Shown: positions 1-42,723 of the stretch, piece after piece
How positions within the stretch are numbered: the first letter of the stretch is position 1
How the letters are laid out: each line of letters begins with the position of its first letter
Assembly (NCBI GenBank): GCA_963737655.1
Contig: CAVTTN010000002.1
Span: forward strand, 3,008,001-3,072,000
Length of the DNA: 64,000 bases
Source: an uncultured Planctomycetota bacterium
Lineage (GTDB): Bacteria; Planctomycetota; Planctomycetia; Isosphaerales; Isosphaeraceae
Direction: 5' to 3'
Translations under genes and position numbers: made by a program
Notes under the pieces: model-generated
What the model was told of the DNA's origin: nothing
Databases searched by the model: none
Seen by the model: the letters and a program-made list of their open reading frames with translations, nothing else

Positions 1-3
1 GCG

Positions 4-2820
4 ATGCGATTCATCCGAGGGGTCAGCCTTCGGGAGGCGATCTCGAAGTTTCACGCCTCGGCGGCCTCCGGGAGCGACCCGGGTCGGCGATCCCTGGAGC
101 TTCGGACGCTCCTGGACCGGTTCCTCGACGTCTGCGACGCGATCGCCTACGCGCACAGCCGAGGCGTGATCCACCGGGACATCAAGCCGAGGAACATCAT
201 GCTCGGCCCGTTCGGCGAGACACTGGTCGTCGATTGGGGCCTGGCCAAGATGATCGGCCGGATCGAAGACCCGACCCTCTTCGCCGAGGCGACCCTGACG
301 CCGGAATCGGGCTCGCAGCTCGAGGCGACCCTGCCGGGCCAGAGGATCGGGACCCCCGCCTACATGCCCCCGGAGCAGGCCGCCGGACGGCTCGACGAGA
401 TCGGCCCGCGGAGCGACGTGTACAGCCTGGGAGCCACGCTCTACACGATCCTGGCCGGCCGGCCGGCGTTCCAGGATTCGGACGTGCCCAGCATGCTTCG
501 CCGGGTCGAACGGGGCGAGTTCGACCCGCCTCGGAGGGTCTGGCCCTGGGTGGATCGGGCCCTGGACGCGGTCTGCCTGAAGGCGATGGCGGTCCGGCCC
601 GAGGATCGTTACGGATCGCCCCGGGCCCTGGCCGAGGACATCAAGAAGTGGATGGCCGACGAGCCGGTCTCGGCGTGGAAGGAGCCGAGGTCCAGGCGCC
701 TGAGTCGCTGGGCGAGGCAGAGGCAGACGCTGGTGACCTCCTCGGCCGTCGCGGCGGTCCTGGTCCTGTCCGTCCTGGGCTATCTCGGCTATGAGGAGCG
801 GCTCCGCGAGGGCCGGAGGCTGACCGGGGCCCTGGCCAGGGTCGAGGCGCTGGAGACCGCCCAGACCCTGGCCCTGCCCGTGATCGTCCGCCAGCTCGGC
901 CCGGACATCGCTCTGGTCCGCGATCGCCTGAAACGGATGGCGGCCGGGGACGGCTCGGACCGGGACGGCCGGCGTCGGCTGCCGGCGGCGCTCGCCCTGC
1001 TGGTCGAGGACCCGTCCCAGGCGGATTTCCTCACCCGGTTCCTCCTGAGTCCCGAGCCCGGTCCCGCCGAGGTCCTGGTGATCCGCGAGGCCCTGGCCGA
1101 ATTCGGGCCCGAGGGCTCGGCCGAGCCGTTCCGCAAGGCCCTGGCAGCCGATCCCGGGGAGCTCGACGACGTCCAGCTCCGCGCGGCGGGCGTGCTCGCG
1201 GGCCTGGACCCCTCGGAGGCCGCCCGGGACGCGCTGGCCGGCCCCCTGGCTCGGAAGCTCGTGACCGAGAATCCGCTGCTCCTGGGGACCTGGTCCCAGG
1301 TGTTCCAGCCGGTCAGCCGCGGCCTGATCGAGCCCTTGCGGATGCTGTTCGCCGAGACGAGCCGACCCGAATCGCGCGACCGGGCTTTTCGGCTCCTCCT
1401 GGAGTTCATCGACCGGCCGGAAAACGCGAGCCACCCCGAGGACCTCGCGTCCCTGCTGATCGACGCCGATCCCGACCGGGCCCATCTCGTGATCCGACGG
1501 CTCGGCAGCCCCCTCGAACGGGCCCGTGCCGTCGCCGCCCTGGCCCCCCTGCTCGACGACGTGGCCCGGTTCGACGCCCCGAAGGCGGCCCGCCAGGGGA
1601 GGATCGCCACCGCCCTGTTCCTGCTGGGCGAGGCCGGGAGGGTCTGGCCCCTCTTCGCCCAGAGGGACGATCCGAGCGTCCGGACGGAGCTGGTCCACAA
1701 CCTCGCCCCCTATGGCGTGGATGTCTCGAAGGTCATGGGGCGGCTGAGGACCGAGCCCGACGCCTCGGCGCGGAGGGCCCTGCTGCTCAGCCTCGGCGGA
1801 TTCGCCCCCGACCGGATCGCCGCGCCGGCCCGTCGGGACTGGGCGGCCGACCTTCTCAAGCGATATCGGGCCGACTCCGATCCCGGGGTCCACTCGGCGA
1901 TCGGCTGGCTGCTCCGAACCCGTTGGGGACTCGCGACGGACGTGGAGACGGCCGACCACGAGCTCCAGTCGTCGCAGATCCCGGCCGACCGCGAATGGTT
2001 CGTGAACGGCCAGGGCCAGACCTATGCGATCGTCCGGGGGCCCCTGACGTTTCGGATGGGTTCGACGCCCCTGGCCGTCCCCGACCTCCAGCCGTCGGAG
2101 CCGGACCATCCCCGACGGCTCCCCCGGTCGTTCGCCATCGCCAATCGCGAAGTGACGATGCGAGAGTTCGGCCGGTTCCTCGACACCCGGCCTCCCGGGG
2201 TCACGGACAATCGCTCCGATCCCCTCTACAAATCGCTCGCCCCCGACTGCGCCGCCGCCGCGATGACCTGGTTCGAGGCCACGCGTTACTGCAACTGGTT
2301 GAGCGCCCAGGAAGGGCTGCCCGAAGACCAGTGGTGCTACCCCAGGGAGTTCGGGCCCGGCTCGTCCCTCCCCGCGGACTTCCTGGATCGGACCGGCTAT
2401 CGGCTGCCGACCGAGGCCGAATGGGAATTCGCGTGCCGGGCGGGCACGACCTCCGCGTACCCGTTCGGCCAGGCCGTCTCCTGGCTCCCGAACTATGCCT
2501 GGTTCGAGAAGCAGTCGGGCATGACCATGAAGCGAGTGGCCCAGCTCGAGCCCAATGACCTCGGCCTGTTCGACATACTGGGCAACGCCTATGAATGGGT
2601 CAATGACCCCCACGAGCCCTACCCGCTCGATCCCGCGGGCAAGCCGGTCCTGGACATCCTGAGGAACCTGAACTGTCCCGAGGATTTGGTCCGGGTGATC
2701 CGAGGAGGGGCCTATCCGCTGGCCTCGGCGTCGCTCCGCTCGGGCTATCGCTCGTTCGGCCTGAAGCCGTCCTTCCGATACCCCTATTTCGGCTTCCGGC
2801 CCGCCCGGACCCTGCCCTGA
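4..2820 (+). CDS. Ser/Thr protein kinase with TM helix, helical repeats and C-terminal FGE-sulfatase (SUMF1, C-type lectin fold) domain; 5' part lies outside the window
   Basis: HRDIKPRN, DWGLAK, GTPAYMPPEQ and SDVYSLG kinase motifs; TM VAAVLVLSVLGYLG; FGE motifs YRLPTEAEWEFACRAG, PNDLGLFDILGNAYEW, GFRPART. Confidence 0.9.
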   Translation: MRFIRGVSLREAISKFHASAASGSDPGRRSLELRTLLDRFLDVCDAIAYAHSRGVIHRDIKPRNIMLGPFGETLVVDWGLAKMIGRIEDPTLFAEATLTPESGSQLEATLPGQRIGTPAYMPPEQAAGRLDEIGPRSDVYSLGATLYTILAGRPAFQDSDVPSMLRRVERGEFDPPRRVWPWVDRALDAVCLKAMAVRPEDRYGSPRALAEDIKKWMADEPVSAWKEPRSRRLSRWARQRQTLVTSSAVAAVLVLSVLGYLGYEERLREGRRLTGALARVEALETAQTLALPVIVRQLGPDIALVRDRLKRMAAGDGSDRDGRRRLPAALALLVEDPSQADFLTRFLLSPEPGPAEVLVIREALAEFGPEGSAEPFRKALAADPGELDDVQLRAAGVLAGLDPSEAARDALAGPLARKLVTENPLLLGTWSQVFQPVSRGLIEPLRMLFAETSRPESRDRAFRLLLEFIDRPENASHPEDLASLLIDADPDRAHLVIRRLGSPLERARAVAALAPLLDDVARFDAPKAARQGRIATALFLLGEAGRVWPLFAQRDDPSVRTELVHNLAPYGVDVSKVMGRLRTEPDASARRALLLSLGGFAPDRIAAPARRDWAADLLKRYRADSDPGVHSAIGWLLRTRWGLATDVETADHELQSSQIPADREWFVNGQGQTYAIVRGPLTFRMGSTPLAVPDLQPSEPDHPRRLPRSFAIANREVTMREFGRFLDTRPPGVTDNRSDPLYKSLAPDCAAAAMTWFEATRYCNWLSAQEGLPEDQWCYPREFGPGSSLPADFLDRTGYRLPTEAEWEFACRAGTTSAYPFGQAVSWLPNYAWFEKQSGMTMKRVAQLEPNDLGLFDILGNAYEWVNDPHEPYPLDPAGKPVLDILRNLNCPEDLVRVIRGGAYPLASASLRSGYRSFGLKPSFRYPYFGFRPARTLP

Positions 2821-2980
2821 GCCGGGGGCATGCGTGGCCGGAGACGCGATCGTCTCCGCGATCTCGATTTTTCTCTGGCTTTCTCCCGATTGAGCAGGTC
2901 TATTTCATAACCTCCTGATGAGGGAGGCGTTTTCTCCATTTCGACCGTGAAAGCCCCGCCGAGTGAGGCCCGCCCCCGTG

Positions 2981-4357
2981 ATGGAGACCGCCCCGGCTGG
3001 CCGAAGGTCGCCTGGCCCGCGGATCGAGACCACGCCGAGGTCGCTTGCCGCGCCCGGGCCCTTCGGGGATCGGTGCGACTCGCGGAAGTACTCGACGATC
3101 GGCGTCGAACGGACCATCCCTCCGGCCGAGACGATCCGTCGCGTCGCGCCCCTGCTCGCACGGATCGGCGTGACCCGGGTCGGCGAGGTCACCCATCTCG
3201 ACCGCAACGGCCTGCCGAACTTCGTCGCCGTGAGGCCCCGCGAGGCCGGCCGAGGCATCTCCTATTACAACGGCAAGGGGGCGACCCGGACCCAGGCGAA
3301 GGCCAGCGCCATGATGGAGGCGGTCGAACGCGTTAGCGCCGAGACGTGTGCTCTCCCCGTGATCCGATCGTCGTTCCGGCGGCTCCGCCGCGAGGCGGAC
3401 GCCATCGACCCGGAGGAGCTGCTCGCCCCGAGGGCCCGGAGCGGCCCTCCGGGAGAGGTCGAGCTCGAATGGGTGCTCGGCCAGGACGTGATCGCGGGAT
3501 ACCCCCGATACGTCCCTCGGAACGCCGTCGTTTCGCCGTATGATCCCTCCCCGGGGGCCGTGGCGCTCTGGGATTCGAGCACCAACGGGCTGGCCTCGGG
3601 CAACACCCGGGACGAGGCGCTCTGCCAGGCCCTCTGCGAGGTCATCGAGCGCGACGCGATGGCCGTCCAGCTCGCGAGCGGCCGGCTTCGCGGAGGCATC
3701 GAGGCGGTCCTGGAGGGACTCGGCGTCGGGGGCCCGCCCTCAGATCGGCCGATTCCGCCTCGGATCGACTTCGCCACCCTCCCTCCGCGAGCCGCCCGGC
3801 TCGGGAGGCGTCTCCGAGGGGCGGGGCTGGCGATCTACCTCCGCGACATCACCTCGGATGTCGGCGTGGCGACGATCCATTGCGCCCTGGCCGAGCCTCG
3901 CGGGGGCGGGCGATTCGCGATCCACGGCGGATACGGCTGCCATCCCGACGCCCGGGTGGCGGTCGTCCGCGCGCTGACCGAGGCGGCCCAGAGCCGCTCC
4001 GGGTGCATCCAGGGAGGGCGCGAAGACCTGCCGGACTTCGCCGGGGGGCCGCCTCCCCGGATCGACCCCGACGAGGTCTTCGGGCAGGGCGAGCGACGGG
4101 CCTTCCGGGACGTTCGGTCCGTCGAGCATCCCCGGGTCGCCGACGATGTGTCCTGGCTGATCGGCCGGCTCGAGGCGGCCGGGTTCCGGCAGGCGGTCGT
4201 GGTCGAGCTGACCCGGGCCGACCTGGGCGTGCCGGTCGTCCGGGTCGTCGTCCCCCGGGCGGAGACCTGGGCCGCGTTCCATCTCCATTCCCGCCGAGGG
4301 ACGCTCGGCCCGAGAGCGATCCACCGACTCACCCGGGGCATCCACGACCATGAATGA
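2981..4357 (+). CDS. ycaO: YcaO-family enzyme, TfuA-associated (thioamide-forming) type
   Basis: NGKG..QAKASAMMEAVER, SSTNGLASGN..EALCQALCEVIERDA, RALTEAAQSR..IQGGREDL, VPVVRVVVP; no fused E1-like domain; start may be GTG 2963. Confidence 0.92.
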   Translation: METAPAGRRSPGPRIETTPRSLAAPGPFGDRCDSRKYSTIGVERTIPPAETIRRVAPLLARIGVTRVGEVTHLDRNGLPNFVAVRPREAGRGISYYNGKGATRTQAKASAMMEAVERVSAETCALPVIRSSFRRLRREADAIDPEELLAPRARSGPPGEVELEWVLGQDVIAGYPRYVPRNAVVSPYDPSPGAVALWDSSTNGLASGNTRDEALCQALCEVIERDAMAVQLASGRLRGGIEAVLEGLGVGGPPSDRPIPPRIDFATLPPRAARLGRRLRGAGLAIYLRDITSDVGVATIHCALAEPRGGGRFAIHGGYGCHPDARVAVVRALTEAAQSRSGCIQGGREDLPDFAGGPPPRIDPDEVFGQGERRAFRDVRSVEHPRVADDVSWLIGRLEAAGFRQAVVVELTRADLGVPVVRVVVPRAETWAAFHLHSRRGTLGPRAIHRLTRGIHDHE

Positions 4358-5921
4358 GCGCGTGACCCTTTGCAGCGCCACCCTGGGCGAGGACGGCAAG
4401 CGGGAACCGCCCCTCGGCCCGCTCTACATCGCCGGGGCCCTGGAGTCCCTGGGCGTCGAGGTCGATTTCCGCGACTATCAGCTCGCCCCCGGGGCCGACG
4501 GCTTCTCCAGCCGGCATCTCGCCGAATTCCTGGGGGATCATGCCGAGATCGTCGCCGTCTCGTGCTTCGTGGACATGCTCCCGGTGGTGATCGACGCGAC
4601 CCGGAGGCTCCGGGAGGCGAACCCCGAGACCACCATCGTCCTGGGAGGCCCCGGACCCAGCGCCTCGGCCGACCGGATCCTGGAGCTCTATCCCTGGATC
4701 GACGCCGTGGTCCGGGGCGAGGGGGAAGAGACCATCTCCGAATGGTGGCTCCGAAGGCGGGCCGGTCGGCACGACCTGGAACCGATCGCGGGCATGAGCG
4801 ACCGGCGAGGAAGCCAGATCGTGGTCGGCGAGGCCCGGACCCGGCTCCTCGATCTCGAATCGCTCGCGCGGCCCGCCTACCACCTCGCCGAGTGGGACGC
4901 CTACGGATACGCCCGGATCATCACCACCCGCGGCTGCGCCTATCGCTGTTCGTTCTGCGACGTGACCGCGCTCTGGGGCAACCGGAGCGTCTACCGGGAC
5001 GTGGACGCGGTGATCGACGAGATGGAGTTCCTCCGGGACGTCCACGGCAAGAGCGTGATCACCATCGTCGATGACACCTTCGTCCAGGATCGCAAGCGGG
5101 TGCGGGCCTTCTGCGAACGGCTTTTGGAGCGACGGAGCGGGATCGCCTGGTCGTGCTTCTCCCGGATCAACCTGATGTCCCGCGACCTGGCCGAGACGAT
5201 GGCCGAGGCGGGGTGCCGATCGGTCCTCTACGGGATCGATTCGGGGTCGCCGGCCGTCCTGGCGAGGACTCACAAGATGGTCCGCGCCGAGAGCGTCGAG
5301 CCCGTGATCGAGTACTCGGCGGAGGTCTTCGATTTCGTCGAGGCGTCGTTCATCTGGGGCTACCCATTCGAGGACCTCGACGATTTCCGGATGACGCTGG
5401 ACCTGGCCGCGAGGGTATCTCGATGGGCGCCCCGGGTGAACGTCCAGCTCCACCGGCTCAGCCCGTTGCCGAACTCGCCGATCTATCGGGAATATCCCAG
5501 CCCTCTGCTCGAGCCCGATCCGCAGGACCGGCCCTGGCTCCTGCTCCCGGCCGTCCTGCTGGAACCCCGGGCCGAGGAGATCGGCCGACTCGTCCGCGCC
5601 GCCCCGGACGTCTATCCGGGCTTCTTCACCCTGCCGACCCCTGACGAGGCCGAGAAGCGCCGGCTGATGGGCAAGATCAAGCGGACCCTGGATCGGACGA
5701 TCGGCGCCACCCTGTTCGACCCGGAGACGGCCCGGCTCCTCGACGAGGACGCGCCCGAGGTCGAACGCTCGCTGTTCGACGCCGAGACGGACTCCAGCGG
5801 GCGGCTCGGGGTCGGGCTGGCGATCAGCTTCTTCCGCCGGAGCCGTCGCCGACGAGGGGCCGGGTGCGACCCGCTCCTCGGGGTTCGCGGGCCGTCGCTG
5901 GTCCGGGAGAGGAACGGATGA
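4350..5921 (+). CDS. Cobalamin-binding radical SAM enzyme (class B methyltransferase-like)
   Basis: N-terminal PPLGPLYIAGAL...VLGGPG...VVRGEGE B12-binding region; TTRGCAYRCSFC (CxxxCxxC); overlaps the ycaO stop. Confidence 0.9.
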   Translation: MNERVTLCSATLGEDGKREPPLGPLYIAGALESLGVEVDFRDYQLAPGADGFSSRHLAEFLGDHAEIVAVSCFVDMLPVVIDATRRLREANPETTIVLGGPGPSASADRILELYPWIDAVVRGEGEETISEWWLRRRAGRHDLEPIAGMSDRRGSQIVVGEARTRLLDLESLARPAYHLAEWDAYGYARIITTRGCAYRCSFCDVTALWGNRSVYRDVDAVIDEMEFLRDVHGKSVITIVDDTFVQDRKRVRAFCERLLERRSGIAWSCFSRINLMSRDLAETMAEAGCRSVLYGIDSGSPAVLARTHKMVRAESVEPVIEYSAEVFDFVEASFIWGYPFEDLDDFRMTLDLAARVSRWAPRVNVQLHRLSPLPNSPIYREYPSPLLEPDPQDRPWLLLPAVLLEPRAEEIGRLVRAAPDVYPGFFTLPTPDEAEKRRLMGKIKRTLDRTIGATLFDPETARLLDEDAPEVERSLFDAETDSSGRLGVGLAISFFRRSRRRRGAGCDPLLGVRGPSLVRERNG

Positions 5922-6586
5922 GCTCGGAGGCCCCCGACGATCGGCCCTGCGTGTTCCTCGGCCCGAGCCTCCCCCGGGATCAGGCTCGATCGTTGATCGA
6001 TGCCGAGTTCCGCCCCCCGATCCGCCGGGGAGACCTCGCGGCCCTGGACCCACGCCGCGTCGTGGTGATCCTCGACGGCGAGTTCGACCAGAGCTTCGCC
6101 GTCTCGCCCAAGGAGATCCTCCGCCTCCTCGACCTCGGGACGACGGTGGTGGGGGCGGCGAGCATGGGGGCGATCCGCGCGGCGGAGCTGGCCGAGGTCG
6201 GGATGACCGGGCTGGGCTGGGTCTTCTCCGCCTATCGAGAGGGGCGGATCGTGGGGGATGACGAGGTGGCCCTCCGCTTCTGTCCGTTCGGCCTCCACGC
6301 CCTGACCGTCCCTCTGGTGAACGTCCGCCGCTGGCTCGGTCGCCTCGAAGAGGCCGAGCTGATCGACGCCTTGACCTCGGCCCGCGTCTTGAGGCGGGCC
6401 CGCCAGGTCTTCTTCGCCGATCGGACGCCGGAGAGGCTCGACGAGGTGATCGCGACGGCCCTCGGGCCCGAACGATCCGGGCGAATCCGTGGTCTCGGCC
6501 TCGCCGAGATCGGCGACGTGAAGGCGGAGGACGCCAGGTCCGCCCTCCGGAGCGTCGCAAGTTGGGGCAAGGTTCCTCAATCCTAG
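5918..6586 (+). CDS. tfuA: TfuA-like protein
   Basis: VFLGPSL, PPIRRGDL, ILDGEF..SPKEI, VGAASMGAIRAAEL, DDEVAL, TVPLVNVR; ATGA overlap with the radical SAM stop. Confidence 0.92.
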   Translation: MSSEAPDDRPCVFLGPSLPRDQARSLIDAEFRPPIRRGDLAALDPRRVVVILDGEFDQSFAVSPKEILRLLDLGTTVVGAASMGAIRAAELAEVGMTGLGWVFSAYREGRIVGDDEVALRFCPFGLHALTVPLVNVRRWLGRLEEAELIDALTSARVLRRARQVFFADRTPERLDEVIATALGPERSGRIRGLGLAEIGDVKAEDARSALRSVASWGKVPQS

Positions 6587-6599
6587 GGAGTTCCGCGAA

Positions 6600-6922
6600 A
6601 TGAGTCCAGCCACCGCGTCCGACGGCCTGAAAGAACTCATCGGGAGGGCGCTCGTCGATAGCGACTATCGCGACCTGCTCTTCGACGACCGCCCCCGAGC
6701 CTTGCAGGACTACGAGCTCTCGGAGATCGACCTGGCCGCGCTCGATCGCCTGGATCGCGAGACGCTCGAAGCCCAGGCCGAGAAGGTCGGCTCCGGCGAG
6801 CTGGTGATCATGATCGCGCCCGAGCCGCGCCTCCGCCCGAACCGACCCCCGAGCCGCCGCCGGAACCGGAGCCGGAACCCGAGCCCAAGCCCGAGCCGCC
6901 TCCCAAGCCCGACGAAGACTGA
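6600..6922 (+). CDS. Putative RiPP precursor (NHLP-clan / Os1348-Franean1_4349-like leader), 107 aa after restoring one base near 6828
   Basis: Leader LKELIGRALVDSDYRDLLFDDRPRALQDYELSEIDLAAL; GGGAG RBS; shifted frame reads PPPEPTPEPPPEPEPEPEPKPEPPPKPDED to TGA at 6920-6922. Confidence 0.75.
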
Positions 6923-6945
6923 GTTCGCTCGGCCTGCCGACTTGG

Positions 6946-7054
6946 GTAGGGTCCGCTGTTGCGGACCTCTTCGATTTCAGTTTTGTAGGGTCCGCTCTTG
7001 CGGATCTCTTGTCGACGAAGCGAATTCGAAGAGGTCCGCAAGAGCGGACCCTAC
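6946..7054. repeat. Cluster of three GTAG-type REP elements (two direct, one inverted)
   Basis: GTAGGGTCCGCT(G/C)TTGCGGA(C/T)CTCTT at 6946 and 6985, reverse complement ending at 7054; internal palindrome GGTCCGC-N4-GCGGACC. Confidence 0.8.
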
Positions 7055-7136
7055 AAAAACCGCGATTCGACGCGCGAAACACGAACCCCGTCTCGGTCTC
7101 GCGGCGGACCCGCCACGACCATCGCGGGCCATTTGG

Positions 7137-8141
7137 CTACTTGACGCGTTGCAGCTTCATGATGCGGCCCGAGACGTTCCAGTCCTGGACGTAGAGGTTC
7201 CCGCCCGCGTCCCAGGCCGAGCCGTGGGTGCCGCTGAAGATCCCCTCGACCCATTGCTCCTGGGGGATGTTGTAGTCCCGGCCCTTGCCTGCGTCGGGGT
7301 TGTTGCCCAGGACGGCGATGATCGTGTTGTTCCGGTTGAGGATGACGAGCCGACCGTGCAGGTCGGGCACCGACACGAAATCCCCCTGGACCGACGCCGA
7401 GGTGGGCATCCCCAGGCCGGTGACGACCTCGTCGAGGAACTCGCCGTCCAGGCTGTAGTGGAGCAAGCGGCCCTTGGGTTCGTGGTTGCGGTCGCAGATC
7501 AGGAGGCGGGGCGGGTCGTACCTCGGGTCGATCGTCATCCCGTGGGCCGTGTTGAACTCGCGGAGGCCGTTGCCCTTGGTCCCGAAGTGCTTGAGGTACT
7601 TGCCGGCCTTGTCGAACTTGAAGATGCGATCGCTGGCATAGCCGTCGGCCAGGAAGATGTCGTCGTTGGGGGCGACGGCGATGGCCGTGGGGTTGAACTT
7701 CGCCGGCTTCGGCCCGGCCTCCTCCGGGAAACCGAGCCTCAGGACGATCTCGCCGGTCCCGGAATGGAACTTGATCCCCTCGGCGGCGTTGTTCCTGGCC
7801 CCGTAGAGGAACTCGGTGCCGCCCTCGTCGCGAATCTTCAGGTCGTGGATGTCGGAGTACTTGTCGCCGAGGAAGCTGCGGACGACCCGGCCGTCGGGCG
7901 CGAAGACGAAGACCCCGGCGTGGGCGCTGGTGTAGACCAGGCCGTCCTTGCCGACGGCCACCCCGCCGTGGCACGGGCCGATCTGCGACTTGCCGTCGGT
8001 CCCCAGGCCCCAGCCCGGGACGGTGTCGAACGTCATCGCCCCGTCGCCCATCCTCACGGGCCGGGCCGGCTCGTCGGCGAGGGCCGGCAGGGCGAGTCCC
8101 ACGGCGAGGGCCAAAATGAGGGAACTCCGGCGGATCTTCAT
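7137..8141 (-). CDS. Secreted NHL-repeat beta-propeller protein (amidating lyase-like)
   Basis: Signal peptide MKIRRSSLILALAVGLALPALA; FNPTAIAVAPNDDIFLADGY, FNTAHG, GNLYVQDWN; AGGAG RBS. Confidence 0.8.
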   Translation of the reverse strand: MKIRRSSLILALAVGLALPALADEPARPVRMGDGAMTFDTVPGWGLGTDGKSQIGPCHGGVAVGKDGLVYTSAHAGVFVFAPDGRVVRSFLGDKYSDIHDLKIRDEGGTEFLYGARNNAAEGIKFHSGTGEIVLRLGFPEEAGPKPAKFNPTAIAVAPNDDIFLADGYASDRIFKFDKAGKYLKHFGTKGNGLREFNTAHGMTIDPRYDPPRLLICDRNHEPKGRLLHYSLDGEFLDEVVTGLGMPTSASVQGDFVSVPDLHGRLVILNRNNTIIAVLGNNPDAGKGRDYNIPQEQWVEGIFSGTHGSAWDAGGNLYVQDWNVSGRIMKLQRVK

Positions 8142-8410
8142 CGAAGGGACTCCTGACAGCGAGGTGGACGACACCCGGGCGGTGATCGTCCCGGGGAGAG
8201 GCCGACAGCACTCGGAGAGCCTACCGGGCCCGGCCGCCCATGAGAAGCCGATGGCGGCGGTGCGCGGCCCCTCCCGAAAGGAAGGCGGGATTCCTTCCCG
8301 GGCGTCTGCCCGCGGCCGTCCTCTCGCCCTTGGGCGGCTGAACCCGTACCCTGGGGACAGGGATTGCGAAGGATCGCCGCCGAATCGAGGCATTGCGAGA
8401 GCGCCGGGCC

Positions 8411-8996
8411 ATGCGAAGAACGACTCGCGAGGACATCGCGGTGCTCGAGGACTACCGCGAATACCTGCTGTTGCTGGTCCGCCTCCAGTTGGGCACGCGT
8501 CCTCGGGCCCGGTTGGATGCCTCGGACGTGGTCCAGCAGGCGATCCTCCAGGCCCATGAGCGGCGGGCCCAGTTCCGGGGCGAGACCGAGGGGGAGTGGC
8601 TGGGCTGGCTCCGCGCCATCCTCGCCAACGCCCTGGCGGCCGAGCTCCGACGGCTCGACACCCAGGCGCGCGACCCTCGGCGAGAGCGTTCTCTGGAGGC
8701 CGAGGCTCGATCGTTCGTCGTCGAGGCTGGAGGGCCTGCTCGCCGCCGACCAGACCTCGCCGAGCGAGGGGGCCGTCCGCGGCGAGGAGTTGCGGAGGCT
8801 CGCCCTCGCCCTCGCCCGACTGCCGGAAGACCAGAGGCGAGTCGTGGAGCTTCACTACTTGAACGGCCTGGCCGTGGCCGACGTGGCCGAGCAGATCGGC
8901 CGGACTCGGCCGGCGGCCGTCGGCCTGATTTTTCGGGGATTGAAGCGGCTCCGAGAAATCCTCCGAGACCCCGAGGAGGCGAGCCATGAGCCCTGA
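8411..8996 (+). CDS. ECF sigma-70 factor, planctomycete type (frameshift near 8704)
   Basis: Region 2 YREYLLLLVRLQL..DASDVVQQAILQA..WLRAILAN in one frame; region 4 LARLPEDQRRVVELHYLNGLAVADVAEQIGRT in the other. Confidence 0.88.
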
Positions 8997-11237
8997 TCTC
9001 ATCGCCGAGCCCGACCGGGAAGGACGCCGCAATCAACTGCTCCTGGACTATCTGGAGGCCATGGAGGAGGGCCGCGAACCCGACCGCGGCCAGCTCCTGG
9101 CCGCCCACCCGGACCTCCGGCCCGATCTGGAGGCGTTCCTCGCCGGCCATGACGAGATCGCTCGGATCACGGTGCCCCTGCGAGCCTCGGGGATCGGCGC
9201 GACGAGACCTCCGGGCGGCCCGGCCCGCGAGGGACCGGGCGTGTCATCCCCGGGGATCGGCGAGATCGGCGACTTCCGCCTGATCCGCGAGGTGGGCCGG
9301 GGAGGGATGGGGGTCGTCTACGAGGCCGAGCAGATCTCTCTCCGGCGGAGGGTCGCGCTGAAGGTCCTGCCGTTCGCCTCGGCCATCGACCCTCGCCGGC
9401 TCCAGAGGTTCAAGACCGAGGCGTTGACCGCCGCCCTCGTCCAGCACGAGAAGATCGTGCCGGTTCACGCCGTCGGCTCCGAGAGGGGCGTGCACTATTA
9501 CGCCATGCAATTCATCGAGGGGCAGAGCCTCGCCGCGTTGATCGCCGAGCTCCGCCGACTCCGCGAGAAGCACGCCCCCCTCACCTCGCGGGGTGGATCG
9601 AATCCGGAGGAAGGAGCGATCGTCGCCGATCCAGCCGAGTCGAGAACGGGGAGCGAGACCTCGCTCGCCGCGACGACCATCTCCCGAGAACGGTCGTCGG
9701 ATCGTCGCCGCTACTTCGACCGGGCGGCGGGCCTGGGGCGGCAAGCGGCCCTGGCCCTGGAGCACGCCCACCAGGCCGGGATCGTCCATCGCGACGTGAA
9801 GCCGGGCAACCTGCTCCTGGACCTCCGGGGGCAGCTCTGGGTGACCGACTTCGGACTGGCCCAGGTCACCGGCGATCCCGGGCTCACGATCACCGGAGAG
9901 CTCCTGGGAACGCTCCGATACGCCAGCCCCGAGCAGGTCCTCGCCCGCCGGGGGATCGTCGATCATCGCAGCGACCTTTACTCGCTCGGCGCGACCCTCT
10001 ACGAGCTCCTGACCCTGCGACCTCCGTTCGAGGATCGGGACCGAAACGCCCTGATCCGGCGGATCGCCGAGGAACAGCCCACCCAGCCCCGCGACCTGGA
10101 CCGGTCCATCCCGCCCGAGCTGGAAACGATCGTCCTCAAGGCCCTGCGCAAGGAACCCGCCGAGCGCTACGGGACGGCCCAGGACCTGGCCGACGACCTG
10201 CAACGCTATCTCGACGGCCGGCCGATCCGGGCCCGACGACCGACGCCCGCCGAGAGGCTTCGGGCCTGGTCTCGCCGGCATCCGTCGATCGTGTGGGCCG
10301 GCGCCGGGGCCTTGATCCTGGTCTCGGCCGGGTCGATGGTCAGCACGGCCCTGGTCCGCCGGGAGCAGGCCCGGACCCTGGCCGAACAGAAGAACGCGGA
10401 ATCCGCCTACCTGAGGGCCCGGCAGAGGGCGGAAGAAGCCGAGGCACGCTTCCGCCTGGCCCGCCGATCGGTCGATGAGCTGATCCGGGTCAGCGAGGAG
10501 GAGCTGGCCCATCGACCCGGGATGGAGGGCCTCCGCAAACGGCTCCTGGCGTCGGCCCTGGCGTATTATCGGGAGTTCGTCGAACAGAGGCGGAGCGACC
10601 CGAACGCCCAGGCCGAGTTGCGAGACACCACCCGACGGATCGAGACGATCCTGGCAGACCTGGCGGTCCTCCGGGCCGCCGGGGAACTCTTCTTGCTCGC
10701 GCAGCCCTCGGCGCTGGAGGACCTCCGGCTCGACCCGGTCCAGAGGAGGAAAGTGGCGGACCTCTCCGACCGCGCGGGGAAGCGATGGATGGACGCGTTC
10801 GGCGACCCGGCCCATCGGCCTCCCCCGGCGGAGCGAGTGCGGATCGCCCTGGAGCAGGCTCGGTCCAACGAGGCGGAGGTCGAGGCCATCCTGTGGCCCT
10901 CCCAGAGAGTCCGGCTCCGCCAGATCGCCCTCCAGTCCGAGGGACCGGCCGCCTTCCGAGAACCCGAGGTCGTCGAGAGGCTCGGACTGACCCCCGGGCA
11001 GCGAGAACGCGTCCGCGCGATCGAGGAGGAGTCCTTCTTCGGCTCGATCCGCGACCTGCAAGAGGGGAAGGCGCCGAGGAGGCCGGCAAGGCGGCGATGG
11101 AACGGATCGTGGCCGTCCTCACGGACGATCAGAGGAGACTCTGGAAGGAGATGGCCGGCGAACCGATCCGGGGCCCGTTGAACGCCTTCCCCATGCCGTT
11201 CGGATCTCGGCGAGACCCGAGGCGAGCCTCCCGCTGA
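8986..11237 (+). CDS. Membrane Ser/Thr kinase coupled to the ECF sigma (frameshift near 11072)
   Basis: GRGGMGVVY, VALKVL, HRDVKPGN, TDFGLA, GTLRYASPEQ; TM IVWAGAGALILVSAG; C-terminus continues in ORF 10785-11237. Confidence 0.9.
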
Positions 11238-23945: not shown

Positions 23946-23984
23946 GCGTCGAATCCACCTCTCCGGGACATCGGGTGACACGTC

Positions 23985-24437
23985 ATGAGAACGTCCGAAG
24001 CCGCCCTGGCCGCGATCCGAAACCGGCCGGGCGGCGAAACCTTGTGGCTGGCCCGCTGGAACGAGGCGTGGGGCGCGTTCCACTTCGTCGGCGGCCACCG
24101 CCTCGACGGCGAATCGTTCCGCGACTGCCTGACCCGCGAGCTGTTCGAGGAACTCGGGCTGAGCGAGGGGGCCGATTTCACGGTCGGGACCGCGCCGCCG
24201 GTTCGGTTCGATTACGTCGGCTGGTCGCGCCGGGCCCAGGCCGAGACCCGCTATCGGATCGAGATGTTCCCCGTCGATCTCCGCGAGCCCGACGGCCGGG
24301 CGATCGCGAGTCGGACGATGACTCGCTGGCTCGATCGTGAGACAATGGACCGAGGCCGATGCGTCGATGGCCTGCCCGTCAGCCCGACGATGGGACTCCT
24401 GATCGCCAAGGCCAAATGGACCGAGACGGCCCCCTGA
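23985..24437 (+). CDS. Nudix hydrolase
   Basis: Canonical box G-HRLDG-E-SFRDCLT-RELFEELGL. Confidence 0.88.
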   Translation: MRTSEAALAAIRNRPGGETLWLARWNEAWGAFHFVGGHRLDGESFRDCLTRELFEELGLSEGADFTVGTAPPVRFDYVGWSRRAQAETRYRIEMFPVDLREPDGRAIASRTMTRWLDRETMDRGRCVDGLPVSPTMGLLIAKAKWTETAP

Positions 24438-24453
24438 CGAGGAGCCCGCGACG

Positions 24454-27400
24454 ATGTTCGACGACGACCGACCGCCGATCCTCCACGACCTCTTCGTGAG
24501 TTACGCCCACATCGACGACCAGGGCGAGAACGCCGGCCACGTCTCGGCCCTCGTCTCCGCCATCGAGGCCGATTACCGACGCTTCGCCGGCTCGCCGTTG
24601 CGCGTGTTTTTCGATCGCGACGAGATCCGGGCGATGGACGACTGGGAAGGCCGGATCTTGACGGGCTTGCGGCACTCCAAGATGATGGTGGCGATCCTTT
24701 CGCCCTCCTATTTCGCCAGCGCCTATTGCCGGAAGGAATGGGAATACTACGTCGAGACCGAGCTGGCCCATGCCTTACCCGGCGATGGGATCGCGCCGAT
24801 TTATATTCTGACTCACCCGAGCTTCGATGCCGATCCGGTCGAGGAAACGCTCCGCCGCTGGGTCCACGACCTTCGGAAGCGGCAGTACATCGACTGGAAG
24901 GACTTCTGGCCCCACGGCTACAGGGCCCTGGAGCGGGAGGACGTCCGCCGGAGGCTGGACCACCTTCCCGGCCAGATCGCCGAGCGGTTGAAACGGTCGA
25001 AGATCCGTCAAGAAAGCCCTCACACCGTCCCCCTGCCGAGCGAGCATTTCGTCGGCCGTCGCGACGAGATGCAGACGCTTCGGCACGACCTGATCCGCCG
25101 TCAAATCGGCGCGATCACGGCCCTCCACGGCATCGCGGGCATTGGCAAGAGCATGCTGGCGTTCGCGTATGCGTGGGGCTACGGCTACGAGTATCCCGGG
25201 GGCCGGTTCCTGATCCAGGCGGCGAACCTGGGAGACCTCGCCTCGGGCGTGATCGCCCTGGCCGAGCGGAAGGGCGTGACGCTCTCCGAGGCCGAGCTGC
25301 GAAGTCCCGATTTGGCTCTCGATCGGGTCAAGAAGGCGTTCGAGGAAGGCCCGGCGGCGCTGATCGTGATCGACAACGTGGACGATCCGGCCTTGCTGGA
25401 CGTCCAGGCGCGGGAGCGGGCGTTGCCCCGGGGGGATCATATCCACGTCCTGGTGACGACTCGCGTATCACCGGAAAACCTGCCTCGCATCCATTGCCTG
25501 CCGCTCGACTCCCTCGAACCGCAGGACGCCCTGAGCCTCCTGAACGAGTTCCGCCCGATCGCCGACTCGCCCCAGGACGACGAATGGAAGGCCGCCCTGG
25601 AGATCGTCCGCCGCCTCGACGGCCACGCTCTGGCCCTGGAGGTGGTGGCGGTCTCGCTCCGCGAGCATCCCGAGGTGTCCTATCGCGAGATGGCCCGGTC
25701 TCTGGAAGAAAACGGCATCTCGCTCCTGGAGGAAGACCTCGGCCCGAGGCGAGGGGCAAGCTCACCTGGCACCGCGAAACCTGCATCGGCAAGCTGCTCG
25801 AACCGACCTGGAATTCGCTCTCGGACGAGGAGAGGAGGGCCGTCGAATACGCCGCGATGCTGCCGCCCGACAACGTGCCGCTCCCCTGGCTCCGCGAACT
25901 GCTCCTCAAGGACTTCCCCACGCTCGCCCAGAGCCGGATCGGCGACCCGATCGCCCGCCTCTTCCAGAAGCTCGAACGCCTCCGCCTGATCGTCGCCACC
26001 GGCCGAGATCGCCAGGACCAACCCCAACCCTCCACCGCCCCCACCCAAACCCGAATTGCCCGGATGCACCGGCTCGTCGGCGACGTGATCCGCCGACAAC
26101 TGGGGAGGGTTGAGGAAACGGCGCGGGAAGAGGTGGTCCACAAGTTCGCCTACGGCCGGGCCGAATGGATCAAGGCGAACTGGGGCAAGGCTGGCCTGGG
26201 CTGGGAAGTGCCGCCTTTGCGTGAGGTGACCCTCGGTCTGATCGACCGAGTCGAGTATCGCGGCGTTTACATGGGAGATTGCATCTCAACGGCATTACTC
26301 CACAGCGGAAGGATGTTCGAGGCCATCTCGCTCTGTCGTCGATCTTCGGAGGCCCTGAAAAAGCTTCTTGATGCAGAACCCGAAAGCAATTTTTACTCCC
26401 GTGAACTGTCAGTGACCTACAACAAGCTGGGCGACCTGGCGCGTTCGTCGGGCGACGCGGCCGGGGCGCGTCGGTACTACGAGGACGGCCTGGCGATCCG
26501 GCGGCGGCTGTCCGACGGCGCGCCCGAGAGCGCCGACTACGCCCGCGACCTGTCGGTCAGCTACAACAAGCTGGGCGACCTGGCGGTGTCGTCGGGCGAC
26601 GCGGCCGGGGCGCGTCGGTACTACGAGGACGGCCTGGCGATCCGGCGGCGTCTGTCGGAGGGCGCGCCCGAGAGCGCCGACTACGCCCGCGACCTGTCGA
26701 TCAGCTACGATCGGCTGGGCGACCTGGCGCGTTCGTCGGGCGACGCGGCCGGGGCGCGGCGGTACTACGAGGACGGCCTGGCGATCCGGCGGCGGCTGTC
26801 CGACGGCGCGCCCGAGAGCGCCGACTACGCCCGCGACCTGTCGGTCAGCTACAACAGGCTGGGCGACCTGGCGCGTTCGTCGGGCGACGCGGCCGGGGCG
26901 CGGCGGTACTACGAGGACGACCTGGCGATCGCGCGGCGGCTGTCCGACGGCGCGCCCGAGAGCGCCGACTACGCCCGCGACCTGTCGGTCAGCTACGATC
27001 GGCTGGGCGACCTGGCGCGTTCGTCGGGCGACGCGGCCGGGGCGCGGCGGTACTACGAGGACGGCCTGGCGATCCGGCGGCGGCTGTCCGACGGCGCGCC
27101 CGAGAGCGCCGACTACGCCCGCGACCTGTCGGTCAGCTACGATCGGCTGGGCGACCTGGCGCGTTCGTCGGGCGACGCGGCCGGGGCGCGGCGGTACTAC
27201 GAGGACGGCCTGGCGATCCGGCGGCGTCTGTCGGAGGGCGCTCCCGAGAGCGCCGACTACGCCCGCGACCTGTCGATCAGCTACAGCAAGCTGGGCGACC
27301 TGGCGCGTTCGTCGGGCGACGCGGCCGGGGCGCGGCGGTACTACGAGGACGGCCTGGCGATCGCTCGGCGTCTGTCGGAGGGCGCTCCCGAGAGCGCCGA

Positions 27401-36963: not shown

Positions 36964-37562
36964 CGGCGTCTTCCCTCATCCAAGAGGGACGGTCCGTCTC
37001 CGGGTCAGCCCTCGTTCGTCGCGAGGAGAGATCCTGACCTTGAGGCGGAGCGTCTGGGGATGTCAAGTAGGGCGTGGGGCGATCGGCCCGGGGTGATCGA
37101 CTCAGCGAGAACCTTGTTCAGGACGAACCGCCCCAGGGGGGTAGGGAATCGGCTTCGATGTCCCATGCAAGTAGGGCAAATTATCGTCCCGCAGCAACAT
37201 GAATGCAAGAGGGCGGCGGACCCGATTCCCGCGGAGGGTACAGTGCCGATCCCCGCTCGACTCGCCGCAAACCGGGGATGGGCCGTGGGGGGCTTTCCCG
37301 GCGCCGGCCTCCCTTCCATGAGTGGCTCCGCCCGACGAGAAAAGGAACAGTCCCCGGAGAACGAGCGGGCCGGGTCATGCAGAATCGGGCCGATCCTGAT
37401 ACAGTCGTGGAGAGAAGGGCCGAGGCTCGCCCGGCCGCGAAGGGTTCACGGATAACCCCCCGGACGAGATCCGTCGGCTCGGCCGGGCACTGCGGAGTCC
37501 TGCCGCCGTCCGCTCGGGCCGTGTCGTGTCGTCGGGAAACCGACTCGGGGAGGCCGCTGCAG

Positions 37563-40421
37563 ATGATCGGGAATCCCAGGCCGATGCGCTATGCGGTCGC
37601 CACTCTTGCCGTGGCGCTGGCGATCGGCCCGTTGTTCCTGCCGGGTCTCGGGCAGGGTATGGGGGGTGTCTTGCTGTTCGGCGTCCTGATCGCCGCCTGG
37701 TACGGTGGGCTGGGCCCGGGGATCTGGGCCAGCCTCCTGGTCCCGGCGATCCTCGTCGCGTTCTTCCGTGCGGCCGGCGTGACGATCCCGACCTGGCAGA
37801 TCTGGTCCTTCGGCATCTTCGTGGCCCTGGGCGGGCTGATCTCGGTGATTTTCGAGTCCCTCCATGCGGCCCAGAGGCGGTCCGAGGCGAACCGAAGGTG
37901 GCTCTCGGCGGTCCTGACCAGCATCGGCGACGCCGTGATCGCCACCGATCGCCGAGGGGCCGTCGTCTTCATGAACCCGGTCGCCCAGGCCCTGACCGGC
38001 TGGGACCCGGAGGAGGCGTCCGGCCGCCCTCTGCCCGAGGTCTTCCGACTCCTGTCCGAGGACACCAAGGAACCCGTCGAGGACCCGGTCGGGCGCGTCC
38101 TCCGCGACGGCGCGATCGTGGGCCTCGGCAACCATGCCCTCCTGATCGGCCGGGACGGATCGGAACATCCGGTCGCCGATCGGGCGGCGCCGATCCGAGG
38201 CGCCTCGACCGACATCTCGGGCGCCGTCCTCGTCTTCCGCGACGTGGCGGAGCAGAAGCAGGCCGAACGGCGAGTCGCCCTCCTGGCCGAGGCCGGGCGT
38301 CTCCTGGGCTCCTCCCTGGAAGAAGAGACGATCCTGCGGAGCGTGCACGATCTCGTCGTCGCGACCTTCGCGGACCGCTGCGCCCTGACGATCCAGGACG
38401 AGCGAGGTGCCCTCCGTCACCTGGCCGACACTCCAGGCGATTCCCACGAGCCGAAGTCGTGCCGCGATCTCTCCTGGCAGGCTCCCCCGGCCGAGGCCGA
38501 CGACCTGGGCTTGCGGCAAGTCCTCCTGGGCGGCGAGCCGGTCTTGCTCGCGGATTCTTCCGAGTTGGCCCCGGGCCAGTCGAGGCCGAGGATCGCGCCC
38601 GCCGGAGGTTCCGTCCTGATCCTCCCCATAAACGCCCGGGGCCGGACGATTGGGGCCATGACGCTCCTCAACAACCGCCCTTCCCGACCATTCGAGAAGG
38701 AAGACCTGCGGGTCGCCCTGGACCTGGCGTCCCGGATCGGCCTGGCCATCGAGAACGCCCGGCTTTTCTCGGAACGTGAGCAAGCGGCACGGAAGCGGGA
38801 GGAAGCCCTGTCCCTCCACCGGAGCGTGGAGGAGCAATTGACCGTGCTCGTCGAGGCCTCGGGCAGCCTGAGCGCCTCGCTCGACCCGCCCTCGGTCCTC
38901 TCCGCGGTCCTCGCCCTGTCGCGGAGGCTGATCGACTCGGACGCCCACGCGATCTGGCGACAGGATACCGCGACGGGCTCCTGGGGGATCGGCCACAGCT
39001 CGGGCCTTTCCGAGGAGTATCGCGAATCGACGATCCGCAGGCTCCGGGACGTGGCCAGGATGCCCGAAGTCCCGATCGTCGCCGATGACGTCATGGATGT
39101 TCCCCTGCTCGGGGCTCGGGAGCACGCGTACCGCAAGGAGGGGATCTGTTCCCTGCTCGCCGTCCCCTTGAGGGTCCGGGACCGGAACAGCGGGACCCTG
39201 GTGTTCTATTACCGAACGCCTCATCGCTTCACGGAGGTTGAAGTCCGGGTGGCCACGGCGCTCTCGAACATCTCGGCCGCCGCGATCGGGACGTCGGAGC
39301 TTTACGAGGAGCTGAAGGACCATGATCGCCGCAAGGACGAGTTCCTCGCGATGCTGGCCCACGAGCTCCGAAATCCTCTGGCCGCGGTGAGCAACGCGGT
39401 CTCCGTCCTCCGGAGCCCCGGCGACACCGAGGGCCGCGCCTGGGCGAGCGAGGTCATCGCCCGGCAGGTTCGGCATCTCACCCGATTGATCGACGACTTG
39501 CTGGACGTGTCGCGGATCACTCGGGGCAAGATCCGCCTCCGCCGGGGTTTCGTCGATGCCTCGTCGATCCTCGATCAGGCCGTGGAGACCGTCCGTCCCC
39601 TGATGGAGGAACGGATGCACTCGCTGCTGATCTCGATCGAGAGGGGGCGCTCCCGCTCTGGGTCGATTCGGCCAGGCTCGAACAGATCGTCGTCAACCTG
39701 CTGACCAATGCGGCGAAATACACCGATTCCGGAGGGCGAATCTGGCTGATCGCCGGACGAGAAGGCGAGCACGTGGCCATCACCGTCCGCGACACGGGCA
39801 TCGGCATCCCTCCGGAAAAGCTCCCCGAAATGTTCCAGCTTTTCGCGCAGGGGGAGCGCTCCATCGCTCGCTCGGAGGGAGGGGCTCGGGATCGGCCTGA
39901 CGGTCGTGCAGATGCTCGCCGAAATGCACGGGGGGAGCGTCTCGGCGACGAGCCGAGGACCGGGCGAGGGAAGCGAGTTTACCGTCCGGCTGCCGATCGC
40001 CCGGGAGGCGGAATCGGAGAGTTCGGAGGCCCCGAGCCCGCCGAACCGATCGGGTCGGTGTTCGCGGATCCTGGTCGTCGATGACAGCATCGACACGGCC
40101 CGGGGCATGGTCCGCCTCCTCAAGCTCCTCGGGCACGAGGTCGCGGTGGCCCACGACGGCCCCTCGGCCGTCGAGTTGGCCCGAGGGTTCGGCCCCGCGT
40201 TCATCCTTCTCGATATCGGCCTACCCGGGATGAATGGATACGAGGTGGCCGAGACGCTTCGACGCGACCCCGGCTCGAAGGACGCCATCATCATCGGAGT
40301 CTCGGGCTATGGCCGGGATGAGGACCGTCGGCGATCGGAGGCCGCCGGCTTCAATCACCACCTGGTCAAGCCGGTCGATTTCGACGCGCTCGTCTCGCTC
40401 CTGGCCGCGAGCATCGGCTAG
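37563..40421 (+). CDS. Hybrid sensor histidine kinase: TM sensor, PAS, two GAF, HisKA, HATPase, receiver (frameshifts near 39645 and 39880)
   Basis: SIGDAVIATD..MNPVAQALTGW; FLAMLAHELRNPL; NLLTNAAKYT, DTGIGI; ILVVDD..LDIGLPGMNGYEVA..KPVD; start uncertain. Confidence 0.9.
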
Positions 40422-42466: not shown

Positions 42467-42723
42467 TTACAGCCATCTTGTGATGAATTCACAAGAGCGG
42501 AACGAAGTGTTCGAAACCGATCGGGGAAGATCGGTGGGGCGGCGGGGCATGGTGGCCCCTGGATGGGCATCCCTCGCGATCGTCGGGGTCGGGGTGTAGG
42601 CCGTCGGTCGAGCCAGCCGGAATCAGGCGCGGGTGTCGCGCTTGGGTCGCTTGCGCGCGCTGCCAGGGCTGTTTGACCAGGCCGGGGCGAAGTCGCTGAT
42701 CTCTCTACATTGAGGTGCTACCA

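Follow-up and report, generated by a model that had tools for sequence, protein, structure and literature searches.

We examined if the DNA between positions 6600 and 6922 of a 64-kb window (the window being the whole stretch of DNA analysed, in which all coordinates below are positions) is one short gene with an interrupted frame, or the start of a 518-aa open reading frame that continues to 8156. The answer that we consider probable is that 6600-6922 is a single gene that encodes 107 residues, a RiPP precursor or else a small modified protein, and is placed last in a cassette of YcaO, B12-radical SAM, TfuA and precursor genes for which thioamidation and C-methylation are proposed, and that the break in its frame is an error of assembly.

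The precursor gene and its cassette

The features to which the argument refers are as follows.

2963..4357, + strand: YcaO-family enzyme that activates the backbone with ATP, 464 aa when counted from the earliest possible start, with the family match from aa 49 onward
4350..5921, + strand: B12-binding radical SAM protein, putative C-methyltransferase, overlapping the YcaO stop by 8 nt
5864..6586, + strand: TfuA-like protein; likely start ATG 5918, overlapping the radical SAM stop (ATGA)
6586..6590, + strand: Shine-Dalgarno-like motif GGGAG, 9 nt 5' of ATG 6600, read from the sequence
6600..8156, + strand: open reading frame of 518 aa, open under table 11 (ORF list)
6600..6827, + strand: precursor residues 1-76 in frame 0 (leader, KVGSG, ELVIMIA, PEP)
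6825..6850, + strand: frame-break zone of short C runs, with one base very probably missing somewhere inside
6830..6922, + strand: Pro/Glu tail, one base behind frame 0, with TGA at 6920-6922
6946..7058, no strand assigned: REP-like palindromic cluster directly 3' of the stop, with two inverted-repeat pairs (94-97% complementary)

The G+C content of the window is about 70%, and its ORF list has long open frames on all six frames. The GGGAG motif ahead of ATG 6600 was invariant when the DNA was aligned with that of L006, a metagenome contig carrying an intact precursor. From the ATG, frame 0 encodes a helical Os1348-like leader (about residues 8-63), KVGSG (62-66), the aliphatic stretch ELVIMIA (67-73) and PEP (74-76). 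Homology to the intact relatives stops at residue 76 (APEP, ending at 6827), and past 6827 frame 0 is a Pro/Arg/Ser-rich run without a stop until 8156. The frame from 6602 gives APPPEPTPEPPPEPEPEPEPKPEPPPKPDED, then TGA 6920-6922; read from 6827, the tail comprises 31 residues (Pro 17, Glu 8, Lys 2, Asp 2, Ala 1, Thr 1). Two bases, 6828-6829, lie between the last homologous codon of frame 0 and the first codon of the tail, so that one added base (equivalent to a -1 shift) yields 76+31 = 107 aa. The frame can be restored at the C runs 6825-26, 6830-31, 6833-34, 6836-38 or 6846-50; with several candidate runs, the 1-10 residues right after APEP are ambiguous, and the length of 107 aa and the stop are firm. 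In the full-gene reading of 6600-6922 the tail is about 31-34 residues long. A hand count of GC3 (about 84% versus 87% for the two tail frames) did not discriminate between them.

These frames, and the intact relatives described below, agree with an earlier note on this DNA, which had proposed a 66-aa leader ending in KVGSG, followed by ELVIMIA and then the tail. The ORF list bears out its statement that the 518-aa frame runs antisense to the next gene, an NHL-repeat gene at 7137..9032 (-), and with TGA at 6920-6922 and repeats from 6946 onward the tail does stop just before the REP cluster. The note had also placed the added base near 6828: the resulting length and stop stand, but not the exact site, as any C run within 6825-6850 fits equally.

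The four genes of the cassette lie tightly packed on the same strand in the order YcaO, B12-radical SAM, TfuA, precursor; start and stop codons overlap among the first three, and about 13-14 nt separate TfuA from the precursor. The YcaO protein matched PF02624 (247 bits) and TIGR03266, the model of the YcaO for McrA-glycine thioamidation (263 bits; equivalog cut-off 365). The radical SAM protein matched PF02310 (68 bits) and PF04055 (65 bits), and its best NCBIfam match, ApyD, at 167 bits was far under the cut-off of 750. The TfuA-like protein matched PF07812 (125 bits) and NF033432 (175 bits versus a cut-off of 235). Because YcaO and TfuA fall under the McrA equivalog cut-offs and the radical SAM protein under those of all named equivalogs, no enzyme function transfers by rule.

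The same arrangement was found at other loci, in metagenomes. Locus L008 holds a YcaO C-terminus 46% identical to that of the window, a B12-radical SAM protein 53% identical over 524 aa, TfuA and a precursor, and locus L007 has radical SAM, TfuA and precursor in the same order; the precursors of both belong to a sister class described below. The C-terminus of the window TfuA is 77% identical to the TfuA fragment on L006, straight after which stands an intact 111-aa precursor. The genes flanking the cassette in the window (a large kinase-like ORF 5'; the NHL-repeat gene, a sigma factor-like ORF and a kinase-like ORF 3') do not look part of it. The cassette has no protease, exporter or sulfur-carrier gene, and there was no C39 peptidase-ABC transporter in positions 1-11000 of the window; two C39 peptidase domains occur elsewhere in the genome, 1.4 and 3 Mb distant, at C2:4.45 Mb and C2:6.01 Mb respectively.

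The REP-like unit of about 26-33 nt is present in three copies at 6946-7058, and the genome has 62 copies of its 26-nt form when up to 3 mismatches are allowed. As no T run follows the unit, it is not a canonical intrinsic terminator.

Cause of the frame break

The genome is represented by 7.63 Mb in 3 contigs, with a marker completeness of only 87.7%. In this assembly rpoC and secA are each split over two frames and three of the four uvrA paralogues are split, and rpoB, dnaE and ileS each occupy one frame. Twelve long genes sampled from the assembly had about 5 breaks in about 34 kb, and the 3 of the 5 that were legible against conserved motifs were each one base too many or too few, within G/C runs of 2-5. 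Since essential genes such as rpoC and secA are broken in like manner, the breaks in this assembly are usually artefacts, and frameshifts seen anywhere in this genome are to be distrusted. Against the L006 DNA, the window tail lacks 4+6 = 10 bases (3n+1), with the first gap just past 6833; beyond the break the codons align as the shifted frame reads them, and the two stop codons fall at matching positions. We judge it very probable that the break in the precursor frame is an assembly error, with one base lost in a short C run.

The break could instead be a real frameshift, making the precursor a recent pseudogene in an otherwise intact cassette. The break is present in the sequence as given, and a cassette that is rare in this lineage could suit a dispensable, recently acquired island; yet the same kind of break is found in the essential genes rpoC and secA of this assembly, the three enzyme genes (about 3.6 kb) are unbroken, and the in-phase alignment of the post-break codons and stop with L006 is still preserved, so that we regard a pseudogene as improbable. 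Programmed -1 ribosomal frameshifting as the link between the tail and what precedes it is very improbable. Slippage by -1 at 6825-6827 would make the identical 107-aa product, but 6819-6830 contains no slippery heptamer of the form X XXY YYZ, no structure lies within the usual 5-9 nt (the repeats begin about 120 nt 3'), and all intact relatives carry leader, core and tail in one frame. That the 518-aa frame at 6600..8156 is a genuine protein deserves almost no credence. It is open under table 11, but with a G+C content near 70% all six frames abound in long open stretches; this one runs across the palindromic repeats (6946-7058), is antisense to a gene that has beta-propeller/NHL matches, and shows no homology past residue 76.

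The breaks of the rpoC, secA and uvrA set, all outside the window, map to C2:6639380; C2:323539; C2:4180519; C2:2379825-2379849; and C2:150090-150102, and in the sampled genes the indel rate of the assembly is about 1 per 6-7 kb. Within the window, a hybrid histidine kinase at 37203-40418 (+) has PAS, GAF, HisKA, HATPase_c and receiver domains; its frame passes from 0 to 2 and back to 0 inside HATPase_c, with breaks near 39640 and 39870, and the N and G1 boxes are legible in frame 2 only. These are probably two further assembly indels.

Relatives of the precursor and fold of its leader

A word-indexed search found one related protein, P0002 (108 aa, 75% identical), in which the leader is the same, the aliphatic stretch reads GEIQIMIAPEP and the tail is Pro/Lys. 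Exhaustive searching with HMMER gave 103 proteins at E<=0.001, of which 9 reached E<=1e-10. The closest intact relatives are P0002 (108 aa), the L006 ORF (111 aa), P0003 (112 aa) and P0004 (102 aa), all four sharing the leader, a stretch of the form I/L-x-I/L-M-I-A/V-P-E/G-P and a Pro-rich tail. Residues M71, I72, P74 and P76 are invariant in 4/4 of the closest sequences, and so is G64, at which position the sister class has L-G-G. The aliphatic stretch itself is kept only in the closest relatives; farther out, its hydrophobic character and the prolines that follow persist.

The tail is always Pro-rich and varies in length and charge, being Pro/Glu in the window, Pro/Lys in P0002 and L006, and near-pure Pro in P0004. 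The C-terminal ends of P0003 (KPKDD) and P0004 (DKED) are much like that of the window (KPDED). The tail of P0040, made of Pro, Glu and Lys, closely resembles that of the window, and at least 35% Pro over the last 20 residues was found in 8/104 relatives, P0003, P0004 and P0040 being among these. Because the X-Pro periodicity is kept while length and net charge differ among close relatives, a passive, extended, solubilising follower is favoured over a recognised substrate. The earlier note had asked if homologous precursors keep the hydrophobic motif and vary in the tail, as the closest relatives do. It had named homologues lacking a Pro/Glu tail, together with accurate reads showing no missing base, as counting against its reading; the closest homologues do have Pro-rich tails. 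Its suggestion that the tail is a follower or spacer also gains from the comparison, as variable length and charge is what a spacer would be expected to show.

The sister class, which is larger, lacks the Pro tail and finishes instead with an alternating hydrophobic strand and Phe as the last residue. A sequence pattern flagged 44/104 as belonging to it, of which P0049, P0076 and P0094 look false by eye. Many of its members (P0006, P0007, P0010, P0011, P0018, P0022, P0023, P0027, P0028, P0087 and others) have long Lys/Ala/Pro-rich N-terminal extensions, and 2/55 aligned relatives weakly matched histone H1-like DNA-binding models. One protein, P0021 (339 aa), was called as a single chain of TfuA domain, basic linker and sister-class precursor; it is either a real fusion or a read-through/frameshift artefact in its source.

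The distribution of the family was also surveyed. No convincing homologue came from searching the proteins of 60 other genomes, and none from the 3 among them that share the genus; a single match at E 0.004 sits in a 694-aa open frame that is not precursor-like, and was set aside. When the family profile was run against 400 other genomes of the phylum, 14 matched at E<=1e-5; 17 translated matches from this 400-genome sample have other NHLP-like architectures, without the C-terminal pattern seen here. Two further candidates were rejected: L005, the one locus returned by a contig scan with a profile of the four closest sequences, is a match in a zinc-ribbon protein with unrelated neighbours, and at metagenome locus L009 the Frankia_peptide ORFs stand beside a PqqD/M50-like gene, which is a different context. 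ESM Atlas feature scores were all <=0.80 and are used as leads only.

The leader belongs to a catalogued family. Residues 10-63 matched NF038399, 'Os1348 family NHLP clan protein', at 46 bits versus a cut-off of 40, and 55/55 aligned relatives matched the same model at E<=0.01. The match to PF14407 Frankia_peptide (34.5 bits, E 2.5e-8) is under the gathering score of 48 and marks a related family below threshold. The NHLP leader model TIGR03793 had no match in the window at E<=0.1, and 2/55 relatives matched it at E<=0.01. Over positions 1-74 the family profile matched the crystal entry of Os1348, 6lk7, with E 2.3e-11.

The fold was modelled on the homologue P0003 (68% identical), not on the window's own protein. 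The AF2 model has five helices over residues 8-63 (pLDDT 86-91), and residues 64-112 are without secondary structure (pLDDT 51-72). Its best PDB match is again 6lk7 (probability 1.00, TM 0.61-0.72 by target, Foldseek E 0.04), with an rmsd of 2.3-2.5 over 61 columns. On this model the precursor is predicted to have a folded domain of helices as its leader, with the aliphatic stretch and the Pro-rich tail both extended.

Proposed chemistry and form of the product

A YcaO partnered by TfuA is the signature of backbone thioamidation, and the B12-radical SAM enzymes of RiPP pathways methylate unactivated carbons. The stretch GELVIMIAPEP contains no Cys, Ser or Thr, which together with a TfuA-partnered YcaO argues for a thioamide rather than an azoline. 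In the sequence of events that we propose, the leader domain would dock on YcaO by protein-protein contact; YcaO and TfuA would turn at least one backbone amide, in or beside the aliphatic stretch, into a thioamide; the B12-radical SAM enzyme would methylate unactivated carbons in the region of that stretch; and the proline tail would be a follower, extended and soluble, by which the greasy stretch remains accessible. Thioamidation and C-methylation directed by the leader, within residues 67-76 or beside them, is thus the likely chemistry; the aliphatic stretch, which the earlier note took for the modified core, is a candidate for that role. The literature searched contains no observation of a thioamide or methyl group for any member of this cassette.

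The docking step was modelled with residues 40-464 of YcaO and 77 aa of the precursor, the latter with a family alignment, and the complex scored 0.68 versus 0.14 for the best control. The 0.68 mark was reached by 116/157 solved complexes and by 2/215 mismatched pairs, counts that are rough because an alignment of our own was used. The runs agreed in at least 50% of contacts, with partner pLDDT at least 72, and the predicted interface sets leader residues 4-64 against YcaO 237-257 and 436-457; the aliphatic stretch lies outside the confident interface. The model suggests that the leader docks on YcaO. Residues of about 237-257 of YcaO, which face the leader in the model, coincide with an interruption of the McrA-type YcaO match (the best stretch of which ends at 237), and may represent a lineage-specific leader-binding insertion.

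McrA and ribosomal protein uL16 retain their thioamides, and archaea install the pair of thioamide and C-methyl modifications in McrA. In the precursor, the leader ends in (K/R)-(L/V)-G-(G/S), which resembles a double-glycine cleavage site. It is unlikely that the product is an uncleaved small modified protein which keeps both leader and tail, or that the tail is itself modified. The cassette is without a protease or exporter, its enzymes score best against models of McrA modification, the leader is a folded domain, and the relative with a crystal structure dimerises (PMC7726476). Many sister-class members also have long Lys/Ala-rich N-terminal extensions, which are odd for a leader that is disposable and discarded. 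Against retention stand the double-glycine-like motif at the leader end and the C39 peptidase domains elsewhere in the genome; against the tail as a substrate, its length and charge are not conserved. A definite picture of the product, to which we give only a minor share of belief, is an aliphatic segment bearing thioamides and C-methyls on a rigid polyproline rod, perhaps with the leader still attached, as a small modified protein. Whether cleaved or retained, the preferred reading of 6600-6922 as one precursor gene includes both forms.

Several known systems resemble parts of this one. Proteusins such as polytheonamide have an NHLP leader and the B12-radical SAM C-methyltransferases PoyB and PoyC, which act on aliphatic side chains. 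The window system resembles them in its long nitrile-hydratase-like leader and its B12-radical SAM enzyme; it differs in that epimerase (radical SAM), dehydratase and N-methyltransferase genes are absent from the cassette, the single radical SAM gene of which is B12-binding, and in that the core is 7 residues in the window versus about 48 in proteusins, besides the window leader leaving TIGR03793 unmatched. TonB-type proteins have a Glu-Pro / Lys-Pro rod, an X-Pro repeat with alternating charge for which a polyproline-II-like extension is expected. The likeness of the window tail to this rod is in composition only, as it comes with no TonB C-terminal domain, membrane anchor or signal peptide; 1/55 relatives weakly matched a TonB model via the tail (E 0.0021). 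The YcaO-TfuA thioamidation systems (McrA thioglycine; thioamitides, thiovarsolins) have an adjacent YcaO and TfuA pair, as in the window. The window enzymes of this pair best match the McrA-type models, but under the equivalog cut-offs, and the precursor family differs from those of the YcaO-TfuA systems.

In genome mining, thioamidated RiPP clusters have been defined by the YcaO and TfuA pair (PMC8120280, PMC6511847). YcaO-TfuA clusters with a B12-radical SAM protein, for which methylation was proposed, are described in Bradyrhizobium and Desulforegula, and these have the same three enzyme types as the window cassette (PMC8120280). Their precursors, as given there, are CCRG-2 or Nif11-like with Gly-Gly motifs, with dedicated transporters in one case, and neither an Os1348-like leader nor a Pro tail is described among them (PMC8120280).

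Os1348 itself (Pseudomonas sp. Os17, 6lk7) has the helical leader domain in common with the window precursor. It is described as a small precursor-like protein encoded beside putative modifying genes, in cluster OS3, which has a GNAT acetyltransferase, a HEXXH peptidase-like protein and a SagB-type dehydrogenase (PMC7726476). The neighbours of the window precursor are YcaO, B12-radical SAM and TfuA in contrast to those given there, and Os1348, at 85 aa in the same source, is without a Pro-rich tail, whereas the window precursor has 107 aa and a tail. Structured NHLP leaders engage an azoline-forming YcaO by protein-protein contact, as stated by Wakeel et al. 2025 (PMC12455567), and the docking of a folded leader on YcaO in the complex model is of the same kind. 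The YcaO of that study forms azolines, whereas that of the window is TfuA-partnered, faces a core without Cys, Ser or Thr, and has a docking that is predicted only.

The precursor family and the enzyme types are thus already known, the leader family being catalogued and having a crystal structure. In the literature searched, which took in few subscription journals and no supplements, there was no YcaO/B12-radical SAM/TfuA cassette with an Os1348-like or Pro-tailed precursor, and the Pro-tailed subclass and the product of the cassette are undescribed in that literature. The locus illustrates how one assembly indel can hide a precursor gene within a 518-aa phantom ORF; with the precursor so hidden, automated annotation and biosynthetic gene cluster miners would miss the substrate of the cassette. 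Two precursor subclasses, one with a Pro-rich tail and one with a hydrophobic strand and Phe, are served by one enzyme cassette, and this pair is a natural experiment on the action of YcaO-TfuA and B12-radical SAM enzymes on a purely aliphatic sequence. Intact homologues exist for expression.

Two other regions of the window were noted. An ORF with TIR and NB-ARC-like matches (24403-25986, +) comes directly after a NUDIX ORF (23979-24434, +) in which the domain match ends at position 67 of 134; this may be either a gene pair of the defence type or one more broken gene. At 42700-50832 (+) there is a 2711-aa open frame with GC3 of 0.94 and 14 matched stretches each of Big_9, Cadherin_4 and Cadherin_5, which by its domain matches is a putative giant adhesin-like protein.
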